The notes under the pieces were generated by a model, which saw only the letters and a list, made by a program, of their open reading frames with translations, searched no databases and was not told the DNA's origin. DNA of 64,000 bases from an uncultured Acidimicrobiaceae bacterium (GTDB lineage: Bacteria > Actinomycetota > Acidimicrobiia > Acidimicrobiales > RAAP-2): positions 8,391 through 72,390 of the forward strand of contig CAVTXA010000004.1 in the NCBI GenBank assembly GCA_963738545.1. The letters are read 5' to 3'. Positions within the stretch are counted from its first letter, which is position 1. Every line of letters begins with the position of its first letter. Of this stretch, positions 9,575 through 25,163 are shown in pieces. A program made the translations under genes and the position numbers.

Positions 9575-12511
9575 ATGACCGTGATCGACTCGCCGGTGCC
9601 GGACCGTCGTTCCCGAGGTCACCGGGGCCCCCGCCTGTTCGAACGCAGCGTGTTCCTCGACGAGCTCGACGCCCTCTTCAACGGCTCGCTGGCTGTGCCC
9701 AGCCCCTGCATCGCCATCGAGGGGACCTGGGGCTCGGGCCGAACAGCGCTCGTCAATGCGGCGGCCGATATGGCCGCCCGTGCCGGCTGCATGGTGCTCC
9801 GGGCCCAGGGAGGGGCACTCGAGGAGCAGACCCCGTTCGCCGTGCTCGGCCGGTTGATCGAGGCGGCCCAAGCCCGCGCCGAGGGCAACCTCGAGGCCCA
9901 GGAGCGGGCCCGTACCCTCGAGCAGCTCGTGGCCGGGCGGCACACCGCGCCCGAAGGCCAGCTCCCGTCCGATCACCCCGCGTCCAACGACCGCGAGATC
10001 GCCTCCCTGTTCCACCGGATGGTCCTGGCCCTCCGCCAGAACGCCCCGGTCCTCATGGTCGTCGACGATGCCGACGAGGCCGACCCGGACAGCCTGGCCG
10101 TGCTCCGCTTCTTGGTCCGTCGGCTCGACCATCAACAGATTTGGCTCGTCCTCGCCTCACGCCCGCTCCAGGTGGGCGGCGGCCTCCGGGCCATCGATGG
10201 GCTGCTCACCGAACCGGACACCAGACAGTTCATCCTCGAGCCCCTCCATGATCCGAGCGTGGACGCCATCCTGACCGCGTTCTTCGAGGTCCGACCCGAC
10301 CCGGCGTTCGTGCGGGCCTGCACCGAAGCCACCGGAGGGTCACCCTTCCTCCTCAAGGCCCTACTCCCCTCGTTGTTGCGGGCCTCGGTGGCCCCCACGG
10401 CCGCCATGGCCCCCTCGGTCGAACTGGTGCGGGCGCCGAAGATCACCCAGTTCGTGCTGACCCGCCTGGCCCACCTGCCGGCGACGACGGCCGACCTGCT
10501 GCAGGCGGCTGCCGTGCTCGGCGAGTCAGCCGACCCCACCCTGGCCCGCCAACTGGCCATGGTGGATGCCCCAACCGCCGACCGGGCCGCTGAAGACGCC
10601 CAACGGATGGAGCTCCTCCAACCCGGGCGACCGTTCCGCTTCACCTCACCGCTCCTCCGTCGTGCCGTCTACCACGACATCCCGTCAGCCCGCCGGTCCG
10701 AGCTCCATGCCGCCGCCGCCCAGCTCCTCGACGCCCACGGGGCCGACGGGGCCACCGTGGCCGGCCACCTGCTCGCCACCGAGCCCGCCGGCGACCTCGA
10801 CATCGCCGACCGCCTGCAGCAGATCGGGCGCCGGGCCCAGGCCGCCGGTGAGGGCGACCTGGCGCTCCGCTGCCTCGAGCGGGCACTGGCCGAGTCCCCG
10901 CTGTCCGAACGACGCACCGCGCTCTACCTCGACCTGGCCGCCGCCGAGGCGGCCGAGCGGGGGGCGCTGGCCCTCGTCCACCTCCGGCGAGCGGTCGAAC
11001 TCGGCGACTTCGATGGTGGCACGATGGTCAGGGTGGGTGTGGACCTCCTCGGCCATCTGGCCGGGGACCCGACCCTGCGTGCCGAGATGCTCACCACGCT
11101 GCTGGAGCTGAGGAGTCAGCTCAACGGGGTCGACCGGGACCTCAGGATCGAGCTGGAACTGACCCTGACCATGGCATTGGACTCGGTCGAGGACCGGGTC
11201 GAGTGCCTGGAGCGGCTCCGCACCCTCTTGGCCGAGCCGGGTGACAACCGGACGGCGACCACCCGACGGGCGCGCTCGGTTGTCAGCCTGCGCTACGTAC
11301 TGTCCTCCCCCGACCTGGCCAGCGATGACGTGGCTGCGGCCCTCGAGCAGCTGGTGGATGTGGAGCAGCTGGTCGACGCGGAGCCGATGGGGGGATGGAT
11401 CCAGGCCACGGCGCTGTTCGGTCTGCTCTGCACCGATCGCTTCGCCATGGTGGACGACGTCCTCGCCCGCGCGTTGATGCGACCGGCGGGAGCCGATCCA
11501 CTGCTCGTCCAACGACGCATCTCGGCGCTGTCCGCCATCTCCTTGTTGTGGCAGGGATCCCTTGTGGCTGCGGACGAGGAGTGCACGCGTACCGAAGAGG
11601 GCATGCCCCATGAGCACGCTGGCCCCGGGCCACGCCCGTTGACCGGTCATATCGACGTGCTCGTGCAACAGGGCCGGTTGGACGAGGCTGAACGGTTGGC
11701 CGACGCGATGGACTCCGGCGGCATCGAGCTCACCGTGTTCCGTGCGCTCTCGGAGATCGAGCGGGGTCGCCTGCTCATGGCCCGCGGCCACGCCGGACGG
11801 GCACTCGAGGCGTTCACGGCCGCCGGCGAGGCGGCCGACCGGGCAGGAATACTCAACGCCGCCATGGTCCCCTGGCGCGCCGACGCGGTGATGGCGCTGG
11901 CGGAGCAGGAGGCCTGGGAGCAGGCGGGAGAGCTGGCGGACGAGAACCTCCGTCTGGCCCGGGCATTCGGTGCACCCCGCCTCATCGGGATGGCGCTGCG
12001 CGCCTCGGCCGCCGCCACCTCGGATCTCGACCGGCGCGTCGGGCTGCTGACCGAGGCCGTGGAGGTGCTCGAGACCTCCGAGGCCCGACTCGAACGCGCC
12101 CACGCCCTGGTCGACCTCGGCACGACGCTGATCGACCAGAACCGCAAAGAGGAGGCCCGGAGCGTCCTCCGACAGGGCGCCAGCTTGGCCTCCCTGTGCG
12201 GGGCCCACCAGCTGTTGGAGCTGGCCGGCGAGCAACTCCGGGCCGCCGGGGCCCGTCCCCGCCGCCTGGGTCTCGTGGGTCCGGAATCACTGACCCCCTC
12301 CGAGCTCCGAGTCGTGCGCATGGCGGCCGACGGTCTCACCAACCAACGGATCGCCGACGACCTGTTCGTGACCTTGAAGACGGTGGAGGGCCATCTGGCC
12401 AAGGCCTATCGCAAGCTGGGGGTCGACGGCCGCCAGGACCTCTCCGAAGCCCTGGCCGGCGGCGACGACGAGGGCGAGTCCGGCGAGATGTTGCGCGCCT
12501 CGGCGGTGTGA
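9575..12511 (+). CDS. LAL-type regulator (large ATP-binding LuxR family)
   Basis: N-terminal P-loop-like 'GTWGSGRTAL', a long helical/TPR-like middle, and C-terminal LuxR HTH 'LTPSELRVVRMAADGLTNQRIADDLFVTLKTVEGHLAKAYRKLGV'. Confidence 0.85.
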   Translation: MTVIDSPVPDRRSRGHRGPRLFERSVFLDELDALFNGSLAVPSPCIAIEGTWGSGRTALVNAAADMAARAGCMVLRAQGGALEEQTPFAVLGRLIEAAQARAEGNLEAQERARTLEQLVAGRHTAPEGQLPSDHPASNDREIASLFHRMVLALRQNAPVLMVVDDADEADPDSLAVLRFLVRRLDHQQIWLVLASRPLQVGGGLRAIDGLLTEPDTRQFILEPLHDPSVDAILTAFFEVRPDPAFVRACTEATGGSPFLLKALLPSLLRASVAPTAAMAPSVELVRAPKITQFVLTRLAHLPATTADLLQAAAVLGESADPTLARQLAMVDAPTADRAAEDAQRMELLQPGRPFRFTSPLLRRAVYHDIPSARRSELHAAAAQLLDAHGADGATVAGHLLATEPAGDLDIADRLQQIGRRAQAAGEGDLALRCLERALAESPLSERRTALYLDLAAAEAAERGALALVHLRRAVELGDFDGGTMVRVGVDLLGHLAGDPTLRAEMLTTLLELRSQLNGVDRDLRIELELTLTMALDSVEDRVECLERLRTLLAEPGDNRTATTRRARSVVSLRYVLSSPDLASDDVAAALEQLVDVEQLVDAEPMGGWIQATALFGLLCTDRFAMVDDVLARALMRPAGADPLLVQRRISALSAISLLWQGSLVAADEECTRTEEGMPHEHAGPGPRPLTGHIDVLVQQGRLDEAERLADAMDSGGIELTVFRALSEIERGRLLMARGHAGRALEAFTAAGEAADRAGILNAAMVPWRADAVMALAEQEAWEQAGELADENLRLARAFGAPRLIGMALRASAAATSDLDRRVGLLTEAVEVLETSEARLERAHALVDLGTTLIDQNRKEEARSVLRQGASLASLCGAHQLLELAGEQLRAAGARPRRLGLVGPESLTPSELRVVRMAADGLTNQRIADDLFVTLKTVEGHLAKAYRKLGVDGRQDLSEALAGGDDEGESGEMLRASAV

Positions 12512-12631: not shown

Positions 12632-13583
12632 TCACGGGGCCCGTTGCGCCAGCTCGGCCGCCCAGTAGTCGGCCGGCGGAAGGGCACCGAACGGATTGGG
12701 CAGACCGGCGTCGGTGACGTAGACGTATCCGGCGCCCCGCTGGCGGCTGAGGTCCATGGCGTGCTCCATCTCGCCGGTGGAGATGGCCCCGTAGACGATG
12801 TGCCAGATCTGTTCGGGTCCGGCCGGCGTCCACGTCAGCGGCTCGAAGTCCTGACCCACGGCGTCGGGGGCGCCGGTGTAGTTGGCGTAGCTGCCCTCGA
12901 AGGTGACCAGGACATCGGCGGCCGCCGCGTAACAGCGCGGGACGGCGATCCCCGGGTTGAGCACCGTAACCGCACCGGGATCGGCCACCCGTAGACGGTC
13001 CCCGAGCGTCCGGTAGGCGTCGGCGTACCGGTTCGATCCGGCCGTCGGCCCACAGGCGCTGGTCGACTCGTCCAAGAAGATGCCACCGAGGTCGGACCCG
13101 TAGAACCGGTACCACGCATCGATGTCCGCTTGGATCTGCGATAGCCAGGCCTCGGGGCCGAACGCTCCCGAGCGCGTGGGCAGGCCGTCGGCGTGGGCGA
13201 ACGACGGGCTACCGAGGTAGCCCGTGTCCACATAGCCGAGCACTCGGCTCCCCGACGCATGGGCGCTGTGGATCACCGCCGCCCAGTCCGCATTGGGTTG
13301 TGTGCCGGGTCCATTGGCCACGTTGGCCACGACGATCCCGACCGCCCCGGGCGGTGACGCCGCCGAGCTGCTCCCACGAGGAGGCAGCGTGCACCGGATC
13401 GACATAGGCCGGCACGGCCAGACGCTGGACGACGGAGGGCGGGCCGGAGGCGGCGGTCGAGTGGTCGGCGATGGTCGGCGATGGTAGCAAGAGCCAGGCC
13501 ACGGCCACGGTGAGCGAGGCCACGACCACGGCCACGGTCACCACCAGTGCGGCCATGCCGAATGCGCTCCTGCTCCCGTGCAT
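12632..13583 (-). pseudogene. spherulin-4 family (GH135 / Sph3-type) secreted protein, split over two reading frames
   Basis: The N-terminal signal anchor plus 'LAVPAYVDPVHAASSWEQL' is in the frame of ORF 13209..13592. The rest ('GIVVANVANGPG..YVDTGY..GIFLDE..') is in the frame of ORF 12632..13405. The junction lies near 13340-13362 in a C/G run. The 952-nt length is not a multiple of 3. Confidence 0.6.
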
Positions 13584-13936
13584 CGCCGTCAACGGAAGCG
13601 CCGCCGTCGCTCCTCACCCATGATGCAAGCCTACGAACGGTCCCGTTCCGCTACTACCCCTGTTCTTCGGGACGCCCACCCCGGCGCTGACGTCCACCAC
13701 CCTGGCATTTGCCCCGCTCCCGATCGCTCGGCCCCAGGCGCGATGGCGGGTCCGTGACGCGAGACTGGTGACGGACAGGGCGAAGGGGCGCAGTGGCAGA
13801 GAACGCAAGCTGGTGCGGCAATCGTGGCCGCGGTCGTGCTCATCGTGGTGCTGGTGGCGTCCACCGCCTCAGTGGGGACCGCGCCGAGCCATCCGGATGC
13901 GGGGTCCGGGGGAGCCTCCACGGGCATCGGCGCGCC

Positions 13937-14168: not shown

Positions 14169-16013
14169 CTACTCGACGGTCACCGTCTTGGCCAGGTTCC
14201 GGGGCCGGTCCACGTCGAGCCCATGGGCCTGGGCCAGCCAGTAGGCCAGGAACTGCAGGGGCAGCGCGTCGACGACCGGGGACAGCATGGGCTCGACCGA
14301 CGGCACCCACAGCACATGGTCGGCCAGGTCGGCCGTCTGGAGGTCGCCGTCGTTGGCCACCAGGACGATGGTGGCACCCCGGCTCTTGACCTCTTGGATG
14401 TTGGAGCACACCTTCTCCCACAGGCTGCTGCGGGTGGCCACGCCCACCACCACCGTGCCCGGCTCGATCAGTGCGATGGGACCGTGCTTCAACTCGCCCG
14501 CGGGGTAGCCCTCGGCTCTCAGGTACGAGATCTCCTTGAGCTTCAGCGCGCCCTCCATGGCTACTGGATGACCGACGTGGCGGCCGAGGTAGAAGAAGTC
14601 CCGGGCCTCGCTCAGGTCCTGGGCCACCTCGGCCACGTCCTTGGTGCGTTCGAGTACCTTGTCGAGGACGTCGGGCAGGCCCAGCATCTGCTGCATGATG
14701 GCGTCGCTGGCCGCGACCGTCATGGTCTGGCGGGCCTGGGCCAGCACCAGGGCCAACAGCTCCAGGGCGACGATCTGGGTGAGGTGGGTCTTGGTGGCGG
14801 CGACCCCGATCTCGGGCCCGGCCCGCGTGTACAGCACCCCGTCGGCCTCCCGGGTCATCGAGGAGTCGGCCACGTTGGAGATCACCAGCACCTTGGAGCC
14901 GGCCTCCCGGGCGGCCCGCATCCCCTGCAGGGTGTCCACCGTCTCGCCCGACTGGCTGACGCCGATGGTCAGCGTGCGGTGGTCGAGGACCGGGCTCCGG
15001 TACCGGAACTCGCTGGCGATGTCCACCTCGGTGGGGATCCGGGCCCACTGCTCGATGGCGTACTTGGCCACCATGGCGGCGTGGTAGCTGCTCCCACAGG
15101 CGACGATGCACACCCGCTCGATGTCCCGGAGGTTCTGGGTGGTGAGGCCGGCCGCTGAATCCAGGACCAGGGTCCCGTCAGACCGACGGTGCCCGGCCAG
15201 GGTGTCGGCCACCGCGTCGGGCTGCTCGTGGATCTCCTTGGTCATGAAGTCGTCATAGCCACCCTGTCGGGCCGCCTCCACGTCCCAGTCGATGGTCAGG
15301 GACCGCGGCTGGGCGCACACGCCGTTCAGGTCCGTCACCGAGACCCCTCCGGGTCGGAGCTCGACCAGTTGATCGTCCTCCAGGGTGAACAGGTCGCGCG
15401 TGAGACCGATGAGGGCGGGAATGTCGGAGGCCAGATAGGTCGCCCCGTCGCCGACCCCGACGATGAGCGGTGAGACCCGACGGGCCGCTACCACCAGATC
15501 GGGCTCGTCGGCGTGGACGGCCGCCACGGCGAAGGTCCCGCGCACCAGGCGCAGAGCCCACCGGAGGCCCTCAGCCAAGTTCGATCCCGAGGCCATGGCC
15601 TTCTCGACCATGTGGGCCAGCACCTCGGAGTCGGTCTCGGAGGCCAGCACGTGGCCCTCGGCCTCCAGCTCGCCGGCGATCTCGTCGTAGTTTTCGATGA
15701 TCCCGTTGTGCACGAGGGCGAGGCGGCCGGTGCAGTCGAGGTGGGGATGGGCGTTGACCGTGGTCGGCTTCCCGTGGGTGGCCCACCGGGTGTGACCGAT
15801 CCCACTGCCGCACGGTTCGGGCGCATCGTCGCCGAACGGTCGGAGGTCGGCCACCGAGTGGGTTCCGTCGGCCGCCCGGTTCCGCCACAGGTCGTCGCCG
15901 TGGATGAGGGCCACCCCGGCCGAGTCGTAGCCGCGGTACTCCAGCCGACTCAGGCCTTCGAGCAACAGAGGAAGGGCGTCGTCGACGCCGGTGACTCCGA
16001 TAATCCCGCACAT
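14169..16013 (-). CDS. glmS: glutamine--fructose-6-phosphate aminotransferase
   Basis: 'MCGIIG' Ntn start, two SIS domains, C-terminal 'NLAKTVTVE', 614 aa. Confidence 0.95.
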   Translation of the reverse strand: MCGIIGVTGVDDALPLLLEGLSRLEYRGYDSAGVALIHGDDLWRNRAADGTHSVADLRPFGDDAPEPCGSGIGHTRWATHGKPTTVNAHPHLDCTGRLALVHNGIIENYDEIAGELEAEGHVLASETDSEVLAHMVEKAMASGSNLAEGLRWALRLVRGTFAVAAVHADEPDLVVAARRVSPLIVGVGDGATYLASDIPALIGLTRDLFTLEDDQLVELRPGGVSVTDLNGVCAQPRSLTIDWDVEAARQGGYDDFMTKEIHEQPDAVADTLAGHRRSDGTLVLDSAAGLTTQNLRDIERVCIVACGSSYHAAMVAKYAIEQWARIPTEVDIASEFRYRSPVLDHRTLTIGVSQSGETVDTLQGMRAAREAGSKVLVISNVADSSMTREADGVLYTRAGPEIGVAATKTHLTQIVALELLALVLAQARQTMTVAASDAIMQQMLGLPDVLDKVLERTKDVAEVAQDLSEARDFFYLGRHVGHPVAMEGALKLKEISYLRAEGYPAGELKHGPIALIEPGTVVVGVATRSSLWEKVCSNIQEVKSRGATIVLVANDGDLQTADLADHVLWVPSVEPMLSPVVDALPLQFLAYWLAQAHGLDVDRPRNLAKTVTVE

Positions 16014-16016
16014 GGT

Positions 16017-16940
16017 TCAGCTTCCTGACTGCCAGAGGTCACTCACGGCCTCGGCGATTGACGTGGATGGGACCCAATGAAGATGACGACGGATGAGTGT
16101 CAGATCGGCCTGCTGCCACACCGGGGGCGTGGCGTAGCCGGCCCCTCCGCTCGACTCGAAGATGTCTCCTTCGAACCCGGCCGCAGCGGCCAGCAGCTCG
16201 ACCATGGAGCGGCCTGACATGGCCACACCTCGCCCCACGTTGAGCAGCGGTGGCACGTCCACGCCGACGGCGGCGCGGAGGACGGCGGTGGCCACATCGG
16301 TGACGGCGACGAAGTCCCGGCAGGCGCTCAGCTGGCCGAGCGTCACGAAGCTGGCTCCGATGGCGACGGCCCCGCAGATCTCCCGGACGGCCGTGCCGAC
16401 CGGCGAGTGGTCCGGGGCGCCCGGTCCGACTGGGTCGAAGATCCGCAGCACCGTGGCCCCGACGTCCCCCCGGGCCACCTGGTCCATGACGAGATCCGTC
16501 GCCACCAACTTGGTCCGTCCGTAGTCCCCGATCGGTCGGGCGGTGGCCGACTCGGCGAACGCCACGCCCCGGGGCTGGTTCCCGTACTCGGCGGCCGAGC
16601 CCAGGTGGATGAGCCGGACCGGATCGGAGCGGGTCAGGGCGTCCAGCAGTTTCCGGACCACCGAGACGTTCACGGCCTCGAGCTCCCCCGCCGATCCCAC
16701 CGTGCAGCCGACGCAGTTGATGACCACATCGGGCTTGCCGTAGTCGAGGAGGTGGGCCACGTCCGCCACCGAGGCGCGCACCAGGTCGAGCTGTGTCCAG
16801 TGGCAGGCGGGCGACTCCGGGGGGTTCGAAATGTGCCCGCTGACGGCCACTACGTAGGCACCCCGGTCGGTGCCCAGGATGGCCCGACGCACCTGGTCGC
16901 CCAGGAATCCGTTGGCGCCGAGGAGAAGGTACCGGGTCAT
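16017..16940 (-). CDS. NAD-dependent epimerase/dehydratase (extended SDR), candidate UDP-hexose/HexNAc 4-epimerase
   Basis: 'LLLGANGFLGDQV' (GxxGxxG) and 'DYGRTK' (YxxxK). The ATG at 16940 overlaps the upstream stop (ATGA). Its stop lies 3 nt before the glmS start. The 603-aa track ORF is an off-frame read-through artefact. Confidence 0.85.
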   Translation of the reverse strand: MTRYLLLGANGFLGDQVRRAILGTDRGAYVVAVSGHISNPPESPACHWTQLDLVRASVADVAHLLDYGKPDVVINCVGCTVGSAGELEAVNVSVVRKLLDALTRSDPVRLIHLGSAAEYGNQPRGVAFAESATARPIGDYGRTKLVATDLVMDQVARGDVGATVLRIFDPVGPGAPDHSPVGTAVREICGAVAIGASFVTLGQLSACRDFVAVTDVATAVLRAAVGVDVPPLLNVGRGVAMSGRSMVELLAAAAGFEGDIFESSGGAGYATPPVWQQADLTLIRRHLHWVPSTSIAEAVSDLWQSGS

Positions 16941-18340
16941 CAGTAGCTCAACGGGGAGGCCAGGACCGAGCGGGCCAGGACGAGGAACAGGACGATGGCC
17001 GTGGCCGTGGCCATGAGGAGCGAGAGGAGGCCGTCCATCGGGGCGATGTGCCCCCGGATCTGCTGATCGATGGCGAGGGCGGCACCCAACACCACGAAGG
17101 TGGTGGCCCAGCACCGCAGCACCAGGTTGATCCGGCCCGAGCACGCCAGCAGGAGGGCCATGAAAAAGGCGACTCCGAGCGTGCCGACCGAGGCCAACAA
17201 CAGGGGCACGTCGGGGAGGTGGTGTTGGCGGCCGGCGATCAGGCACACCACCGAGAGCACGGCCAGAGCGCCCACATAGAGCCCGATGGAACGACGGAAG
17301 GCCCGGCCGACACGGTGACCGAAGTCGTCGAGGTCGTAGCTGGCGCTGAGGGCGGCGGTGGCCCGGCTCCGGAACGAGCGCAGCTGCCACTCCATCAGGC
17401 CCAGGGTCAACAGCAGGGGCCAGACGGCGATGGACAGGGCACGGGCACTCCCGTTGACCCCGCTGGCGAAGGCGATGAGCGTGCCCAGCAGGACACCGCA
17501 ACTGATGCCGTAGGCCAGGAACTTGGCTGCCCGCACCCAGTCGGCCCGCGCCAGGCCGGGACGCCGCCACCGGTTGGTGGGCACGAAGCGGTTGGCCACC
17601 ACGGTGACCAGGCCCACCGTGGCCACCACGCACCAGGCCGCTGTCGATGATCCGACGCCGACCGGCAGGTGCCCCAGGGCCAGCACCGACCCGACGACGG
17701 CGGGCACCATGCACACGGCCAACAGCAGTTCGGACTGCTGGAACACCATGATCGCACTGGCGGCGACATACACACCGATGCACGCCACCGTGACCGCGCT
17801 CGACGCATCGCCCCCGAGGGTCCAGCACGCCACCAAAGCGGCGGCCAGACAGGCCAGTCCGGTGACGAGGAGCGTGGCCAGGGCCATGAGGGCGTCGCTA
17901 CGCGAGTCCTTCCGTCCCAGCAGCGCCCAGGCGCAGGTGGCCGCGGCCTGGCTCGTTCCCCAGGCCACGGTGAGGCCCACAGGCAGCACCCACCAGCTGA
18001 GCCGCAGCCCGAAGCCGGTGACCACCACGGGAAGGAAGAGGGCGGGGAGGGCGTAGAGCGCGCCCCGCAGCAGGTCGACGGGTCCGCCCCGGTCCGGGAC
18101 CGAAGGGGCCGGCGGCACCACGTCGTGGAACGGCAGCTCGCGGTAGACAGCCTCGGCCGTGCTGAACACGTCGGCGTAGCCGAACGTGTCCACGGCCACC
18201 TGGCTGCTCACGCCGTGGGACTCGAGGCGTGCGGCGATCTCGACGGGGTCGACGGCGGCACCGCAGGCCACCGACAGCATGGGATCGTCGGACAGCCACG
18301 AGGTGATCCGATCGAGCCGCTCCCGATCCGTTGCGCTCAT
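16940..18340 (-). CDS. polytopic (about 12 TM) membrane protein with a roughly 90-aa soluble N-terminal domain; candidate PelG-analogous export/assembly component
   Basis: About twelve hydrophobic segments read by eye. The start shares one nucleotide with the GT stop (TGATG) and the stop overlaps the epimerase start. I recognise no family motif. Confidence 0.6.
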   Translation of the reverse strand: MSATDRERLDRITSWLSDDPMLSVACGAAVDPVEIAARLESHGVSSQVAVDTFGYADVFSTAEAVYRELPFHDVVPPAPSVPDRGGPVDLLRGALYALPALFLPVVVTGFGLRLSWWVLPVGLTVAWGTSQAAATCAWALLGRKDSRSDALMALATLLVTGLACLAAALVACWTLGGDASSAVTVACIGVYVAASAIMVFQQSELLLAVCMVPAVVGSVLALGHLPVGVGSSTAAWCVVATVGLVTVVANRFVPTNRWRRPGLARADWVRAAKFLAYGISCGVLLGTLIAFASGVNGSARALSIAVWPLLLTLGLMEWQLRSFRSRATAALSASYDLDDFGHRVGRAFRRSIGLYVGALAVLSVVCLIAGRQHHLPDVPLLLASVGTLGVAFFMALLLACSGRINLVLRCWATTFVVLGAALAIDQQIRGHIAPMDGLLSLLMATATAIVLFLVLARSVLASPLSY

Positions 18341-19836
18341 CAGGAGGCCGCCGACAGCATCTCGTCGTCAGACTCGGTGGGCAGCGCCACGAGGTCCGTC
18401 CGGTCCCGCACACCGGCGCTCCGGTCGACCACCGTCCGGTAGACGTCGCCGTACTCGGCCAGATTCTGCTCCAAGGTGAACTTGGACAGCACGCGGGCCC
18501 GGGCCGCCTCGGCGATCCACCGACGGAACCCGTCGCTGGTGAGCAGGCTGAGACAGGCCTCGGCCGTGTGCCTCGGGCTCTGGGGTGGCACGATCAGGCC
18601 GGCGTCCCCGGTGGCCTCGGCCACCCCGCCCACGTCGGTGGCGACCGTAGCCATACCGGATGCCATCGCCTCGATGAGGCTGTAGGGAAAGCCCTCCGAG
18701 ATGCTGGTCAGGATAACCACGTGCCCGGTGTGGTACGCCTCGACGACCGAGTCGGTCTGACCCTCGAAGGTGGCGCACTCCTCCAGGCCGAGGCGCGCAC
18801 GCAGGGCCAGGCACCGGTCGAAGTAGGCCGCGTTCTCCTCGGACACCCCGCCGTACATGCGGAGCCGGGCCGCCGGCAGGGCCTCGTGCACGAGCGCGAA
18901 GGACTCGATCAGCGTCTCGACGTCCTTCAGGGGACCGATGCGCCCCATCCAGACCAGGGTGGGCTCCTCGGGCTCGGTGGCGCTGACGGTGAAGTGGTCG
19001 GTGTCGACCCCGTTGTAGATGGTCTGGATGCGGCCGGGGTCGGCGCCGTTGGCCTCCTGCCACCGACGGTTGTAGTCACACACGGGTGCGATCGAGCCGG
19101 CGATCTGGTAGCCGGCCCAGGCCAGGTGCTTGTAGAAGCGGAGCATGAGCGAGCGGACGGCGAACGAGAACCGGTCGGGGGCGTAGGAGAAGTAGCGCTC
19201 CCGGAGGTAGATGCCGTGCTCACTCAGTACCAGCGGTGTCTCGTCGATCCAGTGGGAGCCGAGGGCCATGAGAATGGACAACCCGTTGGCCGAGGCATGG
19301 CACAGGTCGGCCCGGGGTGCAGGGGCATAGAGCGGGCGGAGGAGATGGTCGAGGTGGTCGAGGACCTGGCTGGCATCGTGCACGGTCACCGGTCCCACGT
19401 CGGCGGCGAACTCCCGGTCACCCGGCGTGGCGTCCTGCATGGCGCCCAGCAGCACCTCGATCGACTCCCGGGTGCGCAGGGCGCCGGCCATGGGTACCTC
19501 CTGCGCCAGCTGGTGGAGCTGGTGGAGCGCGTCGAGAAACTGCGCCTCGCCATCGACCCGGGCCAAGGACTGGGCCAGGCCGTGGAAGGCCGACCGGAGC
19601 TCGACCGAGTGGTGGAGCGGATGCCTCGACTCGGGACCGGCACCCCAGAGGGGAACGGTGTGCACGGCGACCACATTGTCGGGGATGTCCCAGATCACGT
19701 CGTTGTCATCCCCGGCGGTGATGGCATGGACCGTGAAGCGGTGCGCGTCGAGTCCCCGGATCAACTGGTCGCACCACACGCTGACCCCTCCAGCCTTGTG
19801 CGGGTAGGTGGCCTCGGTGAGCAGTGCTACGTCCAC
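18340..19836 (-). CDS. PelF-like GT4 glycosyltransferase with a DUF3492-type N-terminal domain
   Basis: 'DVALLTEATYPHKAGGVSVWCDQLIRGL' and 'SEHGIYLRERY' resemble the PelF N-domain. 'SISEGFPYSLIEAMASG' is the GT4 E-x7-E region. Confidence 0.8.
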   Translation of the reverse strand: MDVALLTEATYPHKAGGVSVWCDQLIRGLDAHRFTVHAITAGDDNDVIWDIPDNVVAVHTVPLWGAGPESRHPLHHSVELRSAFHGLAQSLARVDGEAQFLDALHQLHQLAQEVPMAGALRTRESIEVLLGAMQDATPGDREFAADVGPVTVHDASQVLDHLDHLLRPLYAPAPRADLCHASANGLSILMALGSHWIDETPLVLSEHGIYLRERYFSYAPDRFSFAVRSLMLRFYKHLAWAGYQIAGSIAPVCDYNRRWQEANGADPGRIQTIYNGVDTDHFTVSATEPEEPTLVWMGRIGPLKDVETLIESFALVHEALPAARLRMYGGVSEENAAYFDRCLALRARLGLEECATFEGQTDSVVEAYHTGHVVILTSISEGFPYSLIEAMASGMATVATDVGGVAEATGDAGLIVPPQSPRHTAEACLSLLTSDGFRRWIAEAARARVLSKFTLEQNLAEYGDVYRTVVDRSAGVRDRTDLVALPTESDDEMLSAAS

Positions 19837-20233
19837 GGTCCACCACCGACTCGGCCGTAGTCCTTCGTCTGGGGTGTCCAGGTATGTCCGGTGACGCGTG
19901 GGTTCGCTTTCATCGTTGGCTACGACAGTACGGATGCAGCTGCCTGCTGCCTACCCCCGACTTTCCGCTCCGCCGGTCGGTCGTCGGCCGTACCTGATCG
20001 ACCCCGACCCCTGCGTCGGGGCACGCGACCCTGGCCCTAGCGGGTCGCCACCCTCGGGCTAGCCGACGGCACCAGGGGACGACGGGGAGCCGTGCCTCTC
20101 AGCCGGTCCCAATGTTGTGGTCCCGGACCCGGGCGACCTGGGTGGCGCGGCGCGATGAGTGGCTCACGCGACCCCACCCCATCGACCTCGTCGCGGAGCC
20201 GGTCCCTGCTATCGACGGGGGATCCCCCGCCAA

Positions 20234-20264
20234 AGTGCAGGGTCTCCCCGGCACAGTGCAGGGT
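20234..20264 (+). promoter_or_regulatory. two exact 10-bp direct repeats (AGTGCAGGGT) spaced 21 bp start to start, 70-100 bp upstream of the large secreted-protein gene
   Basis: Read directly at 20234-20243 and 20255-20264, inside the 495-bp divergent intergenic region. Confidence 0.35.
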
Positions 20265-20331
20265 AGAGATCCACCCACTCGGGGCTTACCGTTCGAAGAG
20301 GCTTTGCGGGCAGAGGGCACGCGGCCAAAGG

Positions 20332-23300
20332 ATGAGCGATTCCATGACCCGAGTGCGCCAGCCCATTGTGAAGGTCATCACCACAGCGGTGATGGCCAGT
20401 CTGCTTCTCGCCACGCTGTTGTCGGTCGGGGCCCGCCCCGCGGCGGCGGCGTCACCGCCCCAGCTCGATCTGCGGGTCCTCCTCATCGGAGACACGGCCA
20501 CCCAGGGCACCACCACGGCGGCATGGGAGTCCTCCCTCAGCAGCGACGGGGTCGCCTACACCTTGGTGACCGCCTCGGGCTCCTACAGTGCCGAGACGGT
20601 CACACTGCCGTCCCTCACCTCGGGATCGACCGGCAACTTCAACGGCGTGGTCATTGCCGACGCCCCCGCCGGGTTCGCCCCCGGCCAGCTCAACGCCCTC
20701 TCCACCTATGAATCCCAGTTCGGCGTCCGTCAGATCGACGGTTCGGCCTATCCGTCGCCGGCCCTCGGGCAGACCGCCGTGTCCGGCGCCAGCCAGACCC
20801 TCGACAACACCACCGCCTCCCTGACCGCCGCCGGCCTGGCCGGCCTGCCCGGTCTGAAGGGCATCGTCCCCTTCGCCGCCGGTACCTTCGGCACCCCGGC
20901 CACGGCTGACGCCGGTGCACCCTTCACCCCGTGGATGGAGAACGCCGCCGGCCAGTCCCTCGGCGGGGTCTACCAGCATCCGAGCACCGCCTCCGACCTG
21001 CAGGCCGGGGTGTCCGAGCTCAGCCTCAACTTCAACTACAACGCCAACCAGATCCAGTGGCTGCTGCTGGCCCCCGGGCTCATCGACTGGGTGACCCAGG
21101 ACACCCACCTCGGGCTGTCGCGCAACTACTTCGGCCAGGACGTCGACGACGTGTTCATCGCCGACAACGAGTGGAGCTCCCAGTTCCAGTGCACCCCCGG
21201 GGCCCAGGACCCACCCGACTACACCTGCCCGGCCGGCGTGGACAACAACCCGGCCGACACGCCCCCCGACGTCCAGATGAACGCCGCTGATGTGGCCTAC
21301 GTCACCAACTGGGAGGCCCAGACCGGCATCAAGTTGAATCTGGCCTTCAACGCCGTCGGGGCGTGCACCGGGACCACCGCGTCCTCAGCCGTGTGTAACG
21401 GCTCCACCACCGAGAGCGGGGCGGGCGAGAACGGCAAGACCTACACCGACCCCGGCTATGTGATCGATGCCACCATGCCCAACGATGCCGCCTTCGTGGA
21501 CGCCCTGCTCGGGGCGAAGTCCGACTTCAACTGGGTGACCCACACCTGGAGCCATCAGTTCCTGGGGTGCAACGTCTGGCAGCCCCAGGCCCTCACCAGT
21601 GTGACGGCCAACGCTTCCGGCGGCTCCTTCACCGCCGGCTCCTACAGCTACGAGATCACCGCCGCCACCGCCTACGGTGAGTCCGAGCCGTCACTGCCCA
21701 AGACCGCAGTCGTGGCCTCCAACGGCTCGGTCACCTTGGCCTGGCCCGACGCCACCAACGGGGTGGGCACCGACGGGACCCCGGGCCCGACTCTGGCTCA
21801 ACTGGAAGCCGACCACGATGCCGGAACCGGCACCGGCTTCTGGGGCTACAACATCTACCGCGAGGACCCCGGCACCACCGCCTACGGCCTCGTCGGCCAG
21901 GTGGCCGAGAACGGGGCCACCCCCACCTACAGCTTCACCGACACAGGCGCCACCGCCCCCGGGGACGCCCCCGGATCGTCGGACTCCTTCCCCACGGCCA
22001 CCGACCCCGGCATCGACTGCTCGAGTGCGCCGGGCAGCTGGGAGCCGGCGGTCGACCCGGCGGGCAGCTCCGACGTCTCGATCGGCACGGAGATCGGCCT
22101 GGACCAGGCCTTCGCCGCCGCCAACGCACTGCCCAACTACACCCCGGCCGCGGTCGTGACCGGCGAGCACTCCGGCCTCGAGAACCCCAACATCACCTCC
22201 GCCTTCGCCGGCGTCGGCATCACGACCTTCGCCGCCGACGGCTCCCGCCAGTCGGCCCCGTACTCCCTGGGGGCAGCCCACTCGGCACCCCGCTACCCGA
22301 CCAACATCTACTACAACGCCGCCAACTGGACCGACGAGCTGAACGAGTACAACACCCTCTACGCCTCGACCACCACGCCGATCGGCAACGGCGAGTACGG
22401 CCACTGTGCCAGCACCTCGTCGACCACGTGCCTCAGCGCACCGGCCACCGAGGCGTCGTTGATCGCTTCGGAGACCGGCATCATGATGAGCCACATCCTG
22501 GCCAACAACCCACGGGTCGACTACGCCCACCAGTCCAATCTGATCGGGTCCGCCGACCCCGCCAACGGGTACACCCTGCTGACCACGCTGAGCGCCATGC
22601 AGTCGCTCTACAACTCGTACGAGAGTGCCAGCGCACCCCTGGCCCCGACGACGGACGTCACCGAGGCCCAGACGCTGGCCCAGCAGTCGGCATGGGCCAC
22701 AGCCGACGCCGCCAACACGGTGACGGCCACCCTCAACGAGGCCACCGGGGCGGTCACCGTGACCAACTCGGGTGGCGCTCCCGTCGACGTGCCGCTCACC
22801 ACCCCGCAGGGCACCACGCTCAGCGGCGGTGGCGCCTACGGCGAGTCCTACGCCGGCCAACTGTCGACCTGGACGTCTGTCGCCCCAGGCACACCGCTGG
22901 TGGTGAACGAGCACGTGGCACCGACCATCATCAGTGCCGCCTCGGCCACCGCCATCGCCGGAACACCGTTCACCACCACGATCACCACCACCGGTGAGCC
23001 GTCCACGGCCATCACCGAGACCGGTGCACTGCCGGCCGGGATCACCCTCACCGACAACGGCGACGGGACGGCCACCCTGGCCGGCACGCCCGGAGCCGCC
23101 ACCGGCGGGAGCTATCCGATCACCATCACGGCCACCAACCCGTCGGGGACGGCCACCCAGGCCTTCACCCTGACCGACGTCCAGGCACCGGCTGTGACCA
23201 GTGCCCCGACCGCCACCTTCTACACGGGGGTCAACGGCACGTACACGGTGACCACCACCGGGTACCCGATGGCCACGGTCACCGAGACAGGTGCCCTTCC

Positions 23301-24789
23301 GGCCGGGATCACCTTCACCGACAACGGCAACGGCACGGCCACCATCGCCGGCGTCACCACCGCCGCCGCCGGGACCTTCCCCGTGTCCGTCTCCGCCACC
23401 AACAGCACCGGGAGCGTGGCCACACTGCCCCTGACGCTGACCGTGGCCACGTCGGGTCCCCCGACCGTCACCAGCGGTGCGACGGCGTTCTTCACCCTCA
23501 ACCAGGCCGGTGCCTTCGCTGTCACCACGAACGGAGCCCCCATCGCCGCCATCACCGAGGTCGGCTCCCTTCCCGCCGGGCTCACCATGGTCGACGAGGG
23601 CAACGGGGAGGCACTCATCTCGGGCACCCCGACCGCCACCGGCACGGCCAGCCTGGCCGTCACGGCGGCCAACGGTCAGACTCCGAATGCCACCCAGACC
23701 CTCGCCATCATCGTGGGGAGCGCGCCGGCGGTGACCAGTCCCACCGCGACCACCTTCGTGGCCGGGGCCCCGGGCACCTTCACCGTCGCCACCTCGGGCT
23801 ACCCCGCACCCTCGCTGGGTGAGACCGGGACCCTGCCGGCCGGGATCACCTGGACCGACAACGGCAACGGGACGGCCACGCTGGCCGGCTCGCCGGATGC
23901 GGTGACCACACCGACGGACTTCCCGGTCACCATCCAGGCCACCGACGGAACGGGCTCGGTCGTCCAGTCGTTCACACTGACGGTGGCACCGGCCCCGGCC
24001 AGTGGCGGCACCATCCCCCCCGTGGGCACGCCGCCTTCGGTCGCCACACCCACCCCTGCGCCCACCTCGGCGCTGGCCGGTGGGGACCGGTTGGCCGCCA
24101 CTCCCGACGGCCTGGGCTACTGGGTCGTGGGGACCAACGGTTCGGTCACCCCGTACGGATCGGCCACCAACTACGGCTCGATGGCCGGGCACGTCCTCAA
24201 CCAGCCCATCGTCGGCGTGGCCGCCACACCCGACGGCCGGGGCTACTGGCTGGTGGCCACCGACGGCGGGATCTTCAGCTTCGGTGACGCCCAGTTCTAC
24301 GGGTCCACCGGGAATCTCAAGCTGAACAAGCCCATCGTGGGCATCACCGGCACCCCGGACGGCAAGGGGTACTGGATGGTGGCCTCCGACGGAGGCGTGT
24401 TCAGCTTCGGTGACGCCCAGTTCTACGGCTCCACCGGGAACATCAAGCTGAACAAGCCCATCGTGGGCATGGCCTCCGACCCGGATGGGAAGGGGTACTG
24501 GCTGGTGGCCTCCGACGGTGGGATCTTCACCTTCGGTGACGCCCAGTTCTACGGCTCCACGGGCAACATCAAGCTCAACAAGCCGGTCATGGGCATGGCC
24601 GCCGACCGCACCGGTCACGGCTACTGGCTGGTGGCCTCCGACGGTGGGATCTTCACCTTCGGCGACGCCCAGTTCCACGGGTCGGGCGGGAGTGCCGGGC
24701 GCACCGCGGTGGGACTCATCGCCTCCCCCACCAGCCCGGGTTACGCCCTCATCGACCTCGACGGCACCCGGACCAACTTCGGGTGGTGA
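20332..24789 (+). CDS. secreted multidomain protein: Agd3/CE4-like polysaccharide deacetylase-type domain with an FN3-like insert, 4 Ig-like repeats, a Pro/Thr linker and a C-terminal 42-aa repeat array
   Basis: Signal peptide 'VITTAVMASLLLATLLSVGARPAAAA'. 'GQDVDDVF' and 'THTWSH' (DD and HxxxH) lie about 131 aa apart. FN3-like 'SYSYEITAATAYGESEPS..TLAW..YNIYRE'. Repeats 'LPAGIT.TDNG.GTATLAG'. Repeats 'GYWLVASDGGIF.FGDAQFYGSTGNIKLNKPIVGMA'. Start chosen at the ATG at 20332 (alternative 20344) after AAAGGA. Confidence 0.85.
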   Translation: MSDSMTRVRQPIVKVITTAVMASLLLATLLSVGARPAAAASPPQLDLRVLLIGDTATQGTTTAAWESSLSSDGVAYTLVTASGSYSAETVTLPSLTSGSTGNFNGVVIADAPAGFAPGQLNALSTYESQFGVRQIDGSAYPSPALGQTAVSGASQTLDNTTASLTAAGLAGLPGLKGIVPFAAGTFGTPATADAGAPFTPWMENAAGQSLGGVYQHPSTASDLQAGVSELSLNFNYNANQIQWLLLAPGLIDWVTQDTHLGLSRNYFGQDVDDVFIADNEWSSQFQCTPGAQDPPDYTCPAGVDNNPADTPPDVQMNAADVAYVTNWEAQTGIKLNLAFNAVGACTGTTASSAVCNGSTTESGAGENGKTYTDPGYVIDATMPNDAAFVDALLGAKSDFNWVTHTWSHQFLGCNVWQPQALTSVTANASGGSFTAGSYSYEITAATAYGESEPSLPKTAVVASNGSVTLAWPDATNGVGTDGTPGPTLAQLEADHDAGTGTGFWGYNIYREDPGTTAYGLVGQVAENGATPTYSFTDTGATAPGDAPGSSDSFPTATDPGIDCSSAPGSWEPAVDPAGSSDVSIGTEIGLDQAFAAANALPNYTPAAVVTGEHSGLENPNITSAFAGVGITTFAADGSRQSAPYSLGAAHSAPRYPTNIYYNAANWTDELNEYNTLYASTTTPIGNGEYGHCASTSSTTCLSAPATEASLIASETGIMMSHILANNPRVDYAHQSNLIGSADPANGYTLLTTLSAMQSLYNSYESASAPLAPTTDVTEAQTLAQQSAWATADAANTVTATLNEATGAVTVTNSGGAPVDVPLTTPQGTTLSGGGAYGESYAGQLSTWTSVAPGTPLVVNEHVAPTIISAASATAIAGTPFTTTITTTGEPSTAITETGALPAGITLTDNGDGTATLAGTPGAATGGSYPITITATNPSGTATQAFTLTDVQAPAVTSAPTATFYTGVNGTYTVTTTGYPMATVTETGALPAGITFTDNGNGTATIAGVTTAAAGTFPVSVSATNSTGSVATLPLTLTVATSGPPTVTSGATAFFTLNQAGAFAVTTNGAPIAAITEVGSLPAGLTMVDEGNGEALISGTPTATGTASLAVTAANGQTPNATQTLAIIVGSAPAVTSPTATTFVAGAPGTFTVATSGYPAPSLGETGTLPAGITWTDNGNGTATLAGSPDAVTTPTDFPVTIQATDGTGSVVQSFTLTVAPAPASGGTIPPVGTPPSVATPTPAPTSALAGGDRLAATPDGLGYWVVGTNGSVTPYGSATNYGSMAGHVLNQPIVGVAATPDGRGYWLVATDGGIFSFGDAQFYGSTGNLKLNKPIVGITGTPDGKGYWMVASDGGVFSFGDAQFYGSTGNIKLNKPIVGMASDPDGKGYWLVASDGGIFTFGDAQFYGSTGNIKLNKPVMGMAADRTGHGYWLVASDGGIFTFGDAQFHGSGGSAGRTAVGLIASPTSPGYALIDLDGTRTNFGW
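22918..23991 (+). repeat. four tandem coding repeats of about 89 aa (bacterial Ig-like / 'putative Ig' type)
   Basis: Each unit contains 'TSA/GP..F..G....FTV.TTG.P...I.ETG.LPAGIT.TDNGNGTATLAG.P....G.....I.ATN..G...Q.FTLTV'. Confidence 0.75.
24223..24726 (+). repeat. four near-identical 126-nt (42-aa) tandem coding repeats, within a longer 5-6 unit array (24082-24786)
   Basis: Successive units align by eye with few mismatches. An example unit is gg(c/g)aaggggtactgg(a/c)tggtggcctccgacgg...ttcggtgacgcccagttctacggctccac. Confidence 0.85.
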
Positions 24790-24825
24790 CGGTCAACAAC
24801 TTCGGGTGGTAGGGATACGGAGCGA

Positions 24826-24848
24826 CTGGACCCCGGGGGGCGGTCCAG
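24826..24848 (+). terminator. GC-rich hairpin (7-bp stem CTGGACC/GGTCCAG) 37 nt after the stop of the large gene; no U-tract
   Basis: Read directly. Terminators without a U-tract are common in actinobacteria, but this one is weak. Confidence 0.3.
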
Positions 24849-25001
24849 ACGCTCCGGCCACCCGGACAAGTGGCCCCCGGTTCGGCGCTCACAGCCCGAA
24901 TCGGGGGCCACTCCCGCGTTTGGGAACCGGTGTCCGCCGGGCAGGTCGGCACGATCCGTCACCGGTACCCTGGTGGGAGGGGGAGCCGGAGAGGAGGCGC
25001 C

Positions 25002-25163
25002 ATGGAGCCAGGAGCCCGGGCCGACAACGGTGACGGGACCACCCCGTCGGAGGACGACCGGATCGACGAGATGGTGGAGGAGTCGTTTCCGGCCAGTGAT
25101 CCCCCGACCGGCTGGGCCGGCGAGGATCCGAGGGACCGCCCCGATCCTCCACTCGTGGATTAG
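25002..25163 (+). CDS. 53-aa acidic protein carrying the conserved 'EESFPASDPP' motif (unknown function)
   Basis: The ATG is preceded by GGAGAGGAGG. I recall the motif 'DEMVEESFPASDPPTGW' from a widespread family of small hypothetical proteins. Confidence 0.45.
   Translation: MEPGARADNGDGTTPSEDDRIDEMVEESFPASDPPTGWAGEDPRDRPDPPLVD

Follow-up and report, generated by a model that had tools for sequence, protein, structure and literature searches.

A putative Agd3-type polysaccharide deacetylase with Ig-like repeats and a predicted beta-propeller, encoded beside PelF- and GH135-family genes in an uncultured Acidimicrobiaceae bacterium

Agd3 is a fungal biofilm enzyme that deacetylates a sticky polymer of sugars. 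Partial de-N-acetylation renders biofilm polymers of the Pel, galactosaminogalactan (GAG) and poly-N-acetylglucosamine (PNAG) types adhesive, and both PelF and GH135 (the Sph3 family) are tied to alpha-1,4-linked polymers of N-acetylgalactosamine (GalNAc) in the characterised Pel and GAG systems. In this work, a 64,000-nucleotide (nt) stretch of DNA from an uncultured Acidimicrobiaceae bacterium (hereinafter, the window; contig CAVTXA010000004.1, positions 8,391–72,390) was analysed. A gene at positions 20332–24789 of its plus strand was found to encode a long protein with an Agd3-type core, followed by Ig-like repeats and a predicted beta-propeller.

The closest described systems are those of Agd3 and its bacterial homologues. 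In Agd3, D377 acts as the base, D378, H510 and H514 form the metal triad and H668 acts as the acid (PMC7229062). The spacing from D378 in motif CM1 to H510 in motif CM2 is 132 residues and was stressed as being >120 residues; the loops after beta3 and beta4 line the active-site cleft, which is capped by the beta2 insertion (PMC7229062). Bacterial Agd3 homologues were reported by Bamford et al. (2020), and those in the tree are 618–894 amino acid residues (aa) long (PMC7229062, Figure 8 and Supplementary Data 2). The actinobacterial gene clusters include 'Agd3, GTB, TM, GH135' in Kytococcus (PMC7229062, Supplementary Data 2), '...GH135, GH114' in Streptomyces lavendulae and '...Epi, GTA, Epi, GH135, GH114' in Actinoplanes (PMC7229062). 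The text of that paper does not mention FN3 or Ig-like modules. Among the Pel deacetylases, CE21 is represented by PelA of Pseudomonas and CE26/CBM114 by PelA_DA of Bacillus cereus (PMC12022489, PMC13254593).

The Agd3-type core of the predicted deacetylase

The gene in the window probably encodes a secreted, surface-retained and metal-dependent CE18 de-N-acetylase that acts in a Pel/GAG-like exopolysaccharide locus. An Agd3-like deacetylase core had been proposed in a preceding sequence-only reading of this DNA, and profile searches bore this out. A profile of 112 relatives (32–84% identical to the window protein) matched the crystal structure of Agd3 (6NWZ) with E = 9.9e-35. The alignment with 6nwz_A (chain residues 26–261 and 378–670) spans the CBM, CE and C-terminal domains, and all motifs from CM1 to CM4 are aligned. 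A profile of 25 close homologues (58–83% identity) reached the same structure with E = 6.4e-9. Agd3 was reached by profiles only, and a single-sequence phmmer search of the core against the PDB gave no match. Using Pfam, a match above the threshold was found for CBM87_Agd3 (PF25116; 32.4–33.4 bits vs. a cutoff of 27.6). The Agd3_CE model was matched by 10 of 19 diverse relatives (E <= 1e-3; best E = 2.6e-16), and in the window protein this model is interrupted by a nested insert. The profile and CBM87_Agd3 scores show that the resemblance is no coincidence. By homology, the core is assigned to the CE18/Agd3 family, and a fold of this type is predicted for it. The layout of the gene product is as follows (AF2, AlphaFold 2; TRF, Tandem Repeats Finder):

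20332–20451, plus strand: start region and Sec-type signal peptide (aa 1–40; from sequence reading and the length of protein P0001)
20464–21051, plus strand: N-terminal CBM87-like domain (aa ~45–240; Pfam PF25116; 6NWZ chain residues 26–261 aligned)
21052–21567, plus strand: first half of the CE18 catalytic domain, with CM1 (D272/D273), the long CM1–CM2 segment and CM2 (H404/H408)
21568–22020, plus strand: nested FN3-like beta-sandwich and Pro/Ser/Asp-rich linker, bracketed by C413 and C563
22078–22656, plus strand: second half of the CE18 catalytic domain, with the GEHSG motif, CM3 (R654), R728 and CM4 (H733)
22657–22917, plus strand: C-terminal beta-rich domain of the Agd3-type core (aa ~776–862; 6NWZ aligned to residue 670)
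22918–23991, plus strand: four He_PIG Ig-like repeats (aa 863–951, 952–1042, 1043–1130 and 1131–1220; Pfam PF05345)
23992–24087, plus strand: Pro/Thr/Ala-rich linker (aa 1221–1252; from sequence)
24088–24789, plus strand: predicted six-bladed beta-propeller of 40–42-aa repeats and the stop codon (aa 1253–1485; AF2, Foldseek, TRF)

All four motifs of Agd3 have clear counterparts in the window protein. In CM1, VDDVF aligns with IDDMF of Agd3 (QIDDMFL), and D272 and D273 are invariant in the 112 sequences. In CM2, HTWSH (HTxSH in the family) aligns with HTFTH, and H404 and H408 are found in at least 90% of these sequences. CM3 (PRYPTNIYYN, with R654 encoded at nt 22291–22293) and CM4 (AHQSNL, with H733 encoded at nt 22528–22530) align with PRWATRIYYN and FHQANL, respectively, and both R654 and H733 are invariant among the sampled relatives of 30–42% identity. 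The complete heptad D272-D273-H404-H408-R654-R728-H733 is present in the window protein and in 98 of the 112 relatives, so the DD and HxxxH residues, whose conservation had been singled out as a check on the assignment, are indeed kept. The distance from D273 to H404 is 131 residues. It exceeds the 120 residues that go with the beta2 insertion and are about twice the CE4 spacing, and the value of about 130 residues that the sequence-only reading had given for Agd3 was right. This CE18-type spacing and the CM3 and CM4 motifs exclude an ordinary NodB deacetylase of CE4, and with its catalytic residues intact the protein is unlikely to be a pseudoenzyme. As judged from the motif alignment to Agd3, D272 would act as the base, D273, H404 and H408 would be the metal ligands, H733 would act as the acid and R654 would support the base.

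The C-terminal beta-rich domain contains strands at aa 797–859 in a low-confidence AF2 model of the core; Pfam searches with this domain and with the insert, each taken in isolation, gave no meaningful match. A second, smaller clade-specific insertion is located between CM1 and CM2 (aa ~343–388; 21358–21495, plus strand). Both positions of its conserved cysteine pair, C345/C355, are cysteines in 29 members of the alignment of 112 sequences, and in most of the more distant relatives this insertion is far shorter (7–33 residues).

The region is covered by a single long open reading frame (ORF) on the plus strand (20092–24789, ORF listing), and translation from the ATG at 20332 yields 1,485 aa with the stop at 24789. 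The database protein P0001, with 100% identity, has a length of 1,481 aa, and AAGGA is located about 10 nt 5' of the ATG at 20344, so the latter is the likelier start codon of the deacetylase gene; residues are numbered here from 20332. The secretion signal proposed earlier could be read directly from the sequence and includes an R/K-rich N-region, a hydrophobic core and a cleavage site between AAAA and S near aa 40. The motifs quoted in the sequence-only reading were all found in place within this one confirmed ORF, namely GQDVDDVF (aa 268–275, with DD at aa 272–273, nt 21145–21150), THTWSH (aa 403–408, nt 21538–21555, with H404/H408 within nt 21541–21555), SYSYEITAATAYGESEPS (aa 437–454), TLAW (aa 468–471), YNIYRE (aa 506–511), PRYPTNIYY (aa 653–661), MMSHIL (aa 718–723) and YAHQSN (aa 731–736). 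An NCBIfam scan of the whole protein returned no family, and similar long proteins, which are common in sequence databases, mostly carry the name 'putative Ig domain-containing protein' there. No promoter or terminator was found when positions 19700–25100 were scanned, which is uninformative in DNA with 70% GC.

Modules added to the core

The FN3-like module that had been noticed after HxxxH is inserted directly after CM2, and its matches to FN3 domains are weak. The insert comprises about 150 aa (aa ~415–580) between the post-CM2 'GC' and the helix 'EIGLDQAFAAA'. According to the alignment, it is missing from the sampled relatives of 30–42% identity, which are themselves 604–787 aa long. The residues C413 and C563 are both cysteines in 29 of the 30 sequences nearest to the window protein and are replaced together by A/V in the remaining one; among the members with a short loop, 45 of 71 have exactly two cysteines in the loop. 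This pattern suggests that the insert is a domain nested in a disulfide-closed loop beside CM2.

The order of segments in the insert appears to differ from that of canonical FN3. The F-G hairpin motif (Y.Y.ITAAT.YGESEPS) seems to come first, followed by B (GSVTLAW), C (FWGYNIYRE), C' and E (TYSFTDTG). Pfam found no fn3 match in the window insert at E <= 10, and a profile of the insert gave weak matches to titin FN3 in the PDB, which extended from one tandem FN3 domain into the next. In the native order, the inserts of homologues matched positions 61–83 of the fn3 model with E = 0.12–0.37. When the pieces were re-joined in the canonical order, two homologues matched positions 20–81 with E = 0.0055 and 0.014, and the permuted insert profile aligned contiguously, again weakly, to single titin FN3 domains. 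Seven strands were placed at aa 423–537 in the low-confidence AF2 core model, where pLDDT was locally moderate. Taken together, the data suggest a circularly permuted FN3-like sandwich. The permuted strand order F-G-A/B-C-C'-E would bring both ends of the sandwich together, and nesting inside a disulfide-closed active-site loop of the CE18 barrel would thereby become possible. Given the cleft-lining loops of Agd3, the insert probably borders the substrate groove and either extends it or supplies it with a further wall.

In a more distant clade (33–45% identity), an FN3-like module whose motifs follow one another in this order is nested after the VTGEHSGLANLVPGNP motif and not directly after CM2 (P0138, P0144, P0149, P0158, P0177, P0242, P0250, P0262 and P0265). 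Inserts of at least 100 aa in the same part of the barrel occur in 41 of the 112 family members. If modules of one kind do sit in adjacent loops in these two clades, this would suggest that an additional groove wall was selected for more than once.

The four Ig-like repeats that follow the core were identified as He_PIG (PF05345; 42.7 bits vs. a cutoff of 24, E = 8e-11, four stretches), each being 88–91 aa long, in agreement with the sequence-only reading. To evaluate how widespread the architecture is, 76 related loci from one-genome-per-species contigs were considered, with a neighbour distance of 10 kb. He_PIG follows the core in 68 of these loci across Actinomycetota. A propeller tail is present in only 12, which with a single exception are from Acidimicrobiaceae or Acidimicrobiales metagenome-assembled genomes (MAGs). 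The architecture, which had earlier been expected to be unusual, is thus not rare, although few of the loci carry the propeller tail.

The C-terminal repeat array, described before as a propeller of five to six repeats, has six blades. The GYW/GYA motif recurs at aa 1262, 1304, 1346, 1388, 1430 and 1470, and TRF detected a 126-nt period in the DNA (3.8 copies, 85% matches, 24199–24680). Modeling of aa 1246–1485 using AF2 with 29 homologues led to a confident model (pLDDT 93.9, pTM 0.89) with 18 DSSP-defined strands in six groups of three. A Foldseek search with this model gave 1,554 PDB matches at E <= 0.001; the top 50 listed were all beta-propellers, mostly of the WD40 type, with a query-normalised TM of 0.55–0.72 and 9–20% identity. 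The model and the structural matches confirm the prediction that these repeats form a six-bladed beta-propeller. No Pfam or NCBIfam family was found for the module, and the Pfam matches of the repeat to CSD_RNase_II, BPL_C and L24e were short and spurious. A weak phmmer match to the YVTN propeller 1L0Q was obtained (1l0q_A, E = 1.1e-4), and a profile of 29 repeat sequences had no match in the PDB at E <= 0.01. Since the profile did not reproduce the link, membership in the YVTN-type repeats was not adopted.

The propeller module is abundant, and 7,993 of the 8,000 database candidates scored matched it at E <= 1e-3. The best 120 proteins (P0271–P0390) are mostly 260–400 aa long, and their source names, where given, are largely Acidimicrobiia. 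Among these 120, fusions to NlpC/P60 (17), CHAP (3), a 3D domain (1) and a transglycosylase-like domain (1) were found. This partnership with cell-wall hydrolases leads us to propose a wall-glycan-binding anchor, and non-covalent tethering of the enzyme to cell-wall glycan is the most likely role of the propeller by analogy with these proteins. In the full protein sequence, which ends in ...TNFGW, no sortase motif and no membrane anchor were seen at the C-terminus. The module is also fused to CAP domains, and some of its members are mislabelled by their sources as 'ribosomal protein L24E'. Elsewhere in the window, none of the propeller, He_PIG and FN3-like modules was found again. We propose only tentatively that two of the modules are new as kinds, namely the circularly permuted FN3-like sandwich and the abundant six-bladed wall-targeting propeller of Acidimicrobiia, which has no family model.

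Gene neighbourhood and proposed function

The deacetylase gene is located head-to-head with an operon of tightly packed minus-strand genes for PelF, a membrane protein, an epimerase and GlmS, together with GH135; a regulator gene adjoins this cluster:

18340–19836, minus strand: PelF-family GT4 glycosyltransferase, divergent from the deacetylase gene (NCBIfam NF038011, full length)
16940–18340, minus strand: multi-span membrane protein of 466 aa; its start overlaps the PelF stop codon
~16017–16940, minus strand: NAD-dependent sugar epimerase, GalE-like (Pfam Epimerase, 104 bits)
14169–16013, minus strand: GlmS, glutamine--fructose-6-phosphate aminotransferase (NCBIfam TIGR01135, 761 bits)
12632–13592, minus strand: Sph3-like GH135 (Spherulin4) with an N-terminal membrane anchor (Pfam PF12138, 110 bits)
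9575–12511, plus strand: large regulator with AAA_16 and LuxR-type (LAL-like) parts

The product of the PelF gene scored 172.6 bits with the equivalog model NF038011 (cutoff 100) and contains the Pfam domains DUF3492 and Glycos_transf_1. The match of the epimerase to the GalE model was weak (52.7 bits vs. a cutoff of 262). As a member of an unnamed family, the membrane protein is a candidate for export or co-polymerisation of the polymer, and Pfam and NCBIfam searches gave no PelG-like match for it. Its gene is translationally coupled to the PelF-like gene. Orthologues of the GH135 gene in four related loci (L001, L003, L004 and L012) are intact, encode 310–330 aa and have the N-terminal membrane anchor. 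The genes downstream of the deacetylase are unrelated.

The neighbourhood is conserved well beyond the window. Within 10 kb, PelF was found in 42 of the 76 loci, the membrane protein in 40 and the epimerase in 41, and this synteny extends to Pseudonocardiaceae and Kutzneria; GH135 is nearby in 25 loci. The nearest relatives are Acidimicrobiaceae MAGs (89% identity), and other related loci belong to Streptomyces, Kitasatospora, Kutzneria, Pseudonocardiaceae and Thermoleophilia. The earlier proposal of a secreted polymer-modifying enzyme fits the adjacent PelF, GH135, epimerase and GlmS genes. The regulator with AAA_16 and LuxR-type parts is kept at the same place in 17 of the 76 loci and may regulate the locus.

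A probable course of events at this locus is as follows. GlmS and the epimerase would supply UDP-GalNAc, and the PelF-type glycosyltransferase and the multi-span membrane protein would polymerise and export a GalNAc-rich, probably alpha-1,4-linked chain, which the GH135 hydrolase would trim. Outside the membrane, the deacetylase would strip part of the N-acetyl groups, resulting in a cationic polymer that adheres to the cell and to surfaces. The deacetylase itself would consist of a core whose substrate groove is extended by the FN3-like sandwich, a stalk made up of four Ig-like repeats with the Pro/Thr-rich linker, and a propeller that anchors the protein to the cell wall.

A number of observations weigh against the assignment of this function. 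The single-sequence match to Pfam Agd3_CE (PF25115) is 12.2 bits and thus below the cutoff of 27.6. Modeling of aa 1–873 using AF2 with the 25-sequence alignment led to an unusable model (pLDDT 48.3, pTM 0.27), and Foldseek with this model found no match at E <= 0.001, the best scores being those of NDST1 and an Ig-like domain of the SPO1 capsid. Support for the barrel fold thus comes from sequence homology. In the cluster, Pfam and NCBIfam assign the membrane protein to no family, and all 83 of its homologues lack a name. The GH135 gene is frameshifted in the window just after 'SSWEQL', in a GGCGGCG run (nt ~13,340-13,360), so that either the assembly is wrong at this point or the hydrolase is truly inactivated. 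Neither GH114 (Ega3-like) nor PelA/B/C/D/E/G was found in a scan of ORFs between 5 and 36 kb. To our knowledge, bacterial CE18 members have been predicted but none has been biochemically characterised, and the substrate is deduced here from neighbouring genes only. The ligand of the propeller is deduced from the fusion partners of the module, and propeller lectins could equally bind the polymer itself.

These observations leave room for other readings of the protein. It might be a CE18-type deacetylase of another N-acetylated glycan, such as a GlcNAc polymer, a secondary cell-wall polymer or peptidoglycan. The family profile weakly touches the GlcNAc-specific N-deacetylase domain of NDST1 (E~1e-4), which Foldseek with the poor core model also reaches at 2e-3, and Pfam HSNSD-CE is matched by 3 of 19 relatives; moreover, the epimerase is a poor GalE match, and the propeller module is common to peptidoglycan hydrolases. 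However, Agd3 is by far the nearest solved relative (E = 1e-34 vs. 1e-4 for NDST1), and PelF, which scored above its equivalog cutoff, and GH135 are both linked to alpha-1,4-GalNAc and are syntenic with the core in many lineages, which makes a different glycan unlikely. It is less probable still that the protein serves chiefly as an adhesin at the surface or as a scaffold of the matrix, with an Agd3-like head that is a lectin-like polysaccharide binder and not an active enzyme. Non-catalytic Ig-like, FN3-like and propeller modules do make up >40% of the protein, and the core includes a CBM87 domain, but pseudoenzymes usually lose catalytic or metal residues, whereas the seven checked residues (catalytic, metal-binding and two conserved Arg) are intact both here and in the 98 relatives mentioned above.

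The function of the propeller is a matter of its own. Instead of being a wall anchor, it may be a multivalent lectin for the exopolysaccharide product, which would serve processivity, or a protein-protein docking module, and this is a possible, though less probable, explanation. The fold is generic, its Foldseek neighbours being mostly WD40-type propellers of low identity, and the repeat profile matched nothing in the PDB; the presence of the tail in so few of the related loci also indicates that it is dispensable for the enzyme. Nevertheless, the module is repeatedly fused to NlpC/P60, CHAP, 3D and transglycosylase-like wall hydrolases that are unrelated to the polymer, and this argues for a shared envelope target. 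A wall-tethered CE18 de-N-acetylase of a GalNAc-rich exopolysaccharide is thus the explanation that we prefer.

The core finding adds one more member to a known family and opens no new question. The locus shows that Actinomycetota of soil and peat, uncultured Acidimicrobiaceae among them, possess a system of Agd3, GT-B, membrane protein, epimerase and GH135 genes, in which the Actinomycetota version of the deacetylase is elaborated and probably tethered to the wall. If the propeller is a general cell-wall-targeting module of Acidimicrobiia, common to the deacetylase, NlpC/P60, CHAP and other wall hydrolases, and if the insert shapes the groove, both modules would provide annotation handles for thousands of 'hypothetical' proteins and would help to explain how a polymer-modifying enzyme is retained at a Gram-positive cell surface.

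Comparison with known systems

The window protein and Agd3 of Aspergillus fumigatus (CE18 + CBM87, 6NWZ, PMC7229062) have the same order of CBM87, catalytic and beta-rich C-terminal domains. Their motifs CM1–CM4 align with nearly equal CM1–CM2 spacing (131 residues in the window protein and 132 in Agd3), both proteins are secreted, and both are encoded beside genes for a GalNAc-type polymer, including GH135. The identity between them is low and was seen by profile searches only. Unlike Agd3, the window protein has a module of about 150 aa, FN3-like, nested after CM2, an extra cysteine-containing segment of about 40 aa between CM1 and CM2 and about 620 additional C-terminal residues (four He_PIG repeats, the linker and the propeller). 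It comes from a bacterial (Acidimicrobiaceae-like) host and is known from sequence alone.

The short bacterial Agd3 homologues are closer to the window locus. They belong to the same family, have the same motifs and share the content and order of the cluster (cytoplasmic GT-B, multi-span membrane protein, epimerase, GH135). The published homologues of 618–894 aa were compared with the window protein (1,481–1,485 aa) by length only, and proteins of that size could not accommodate both the insert and a tail of Ig-like repeats and propeller. GH114 is present in some of their clusters, whereas none was found among the scanned window ORFs (5–36 kb).

PelA and PelA_DA are the characterised functional analogues. 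Both act outside the cytoplasm as metal-dependent de-N-acetylases, their substrate being an alpha-1,4-GalNAc polymer that PelF-containing machinery synthesises, and PelA_DA has a three-domain Agd3-like layout. They belong to other CE families, while the window enzyme is CE18-like, and PelD, PelE and PelG were not detected among the scanned ORFs. By analogy, the CE18 enzyme probably fills the role of PelA or PelA_DA at the window locus.

As for the propeller, a repeat of about 42 aa likewise corresponds to one blade in the surface-layer YVTN propeller of Methanosarcina (1L0Q) and in WD40-type propellers. In contrast to these, the window propeller has six three-stranded blades, has no family model, is found mostly in Acidimicrobiia as far as source names are given and is often fused to peptidoglycan hydrolases. 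In the literature searched, neither the propeller module nor long homologues of Agd3 had been described. Thus, the enzyme family and the type of cluster are already known, and the longer architecture is undescribed but common in Actinomycetota.

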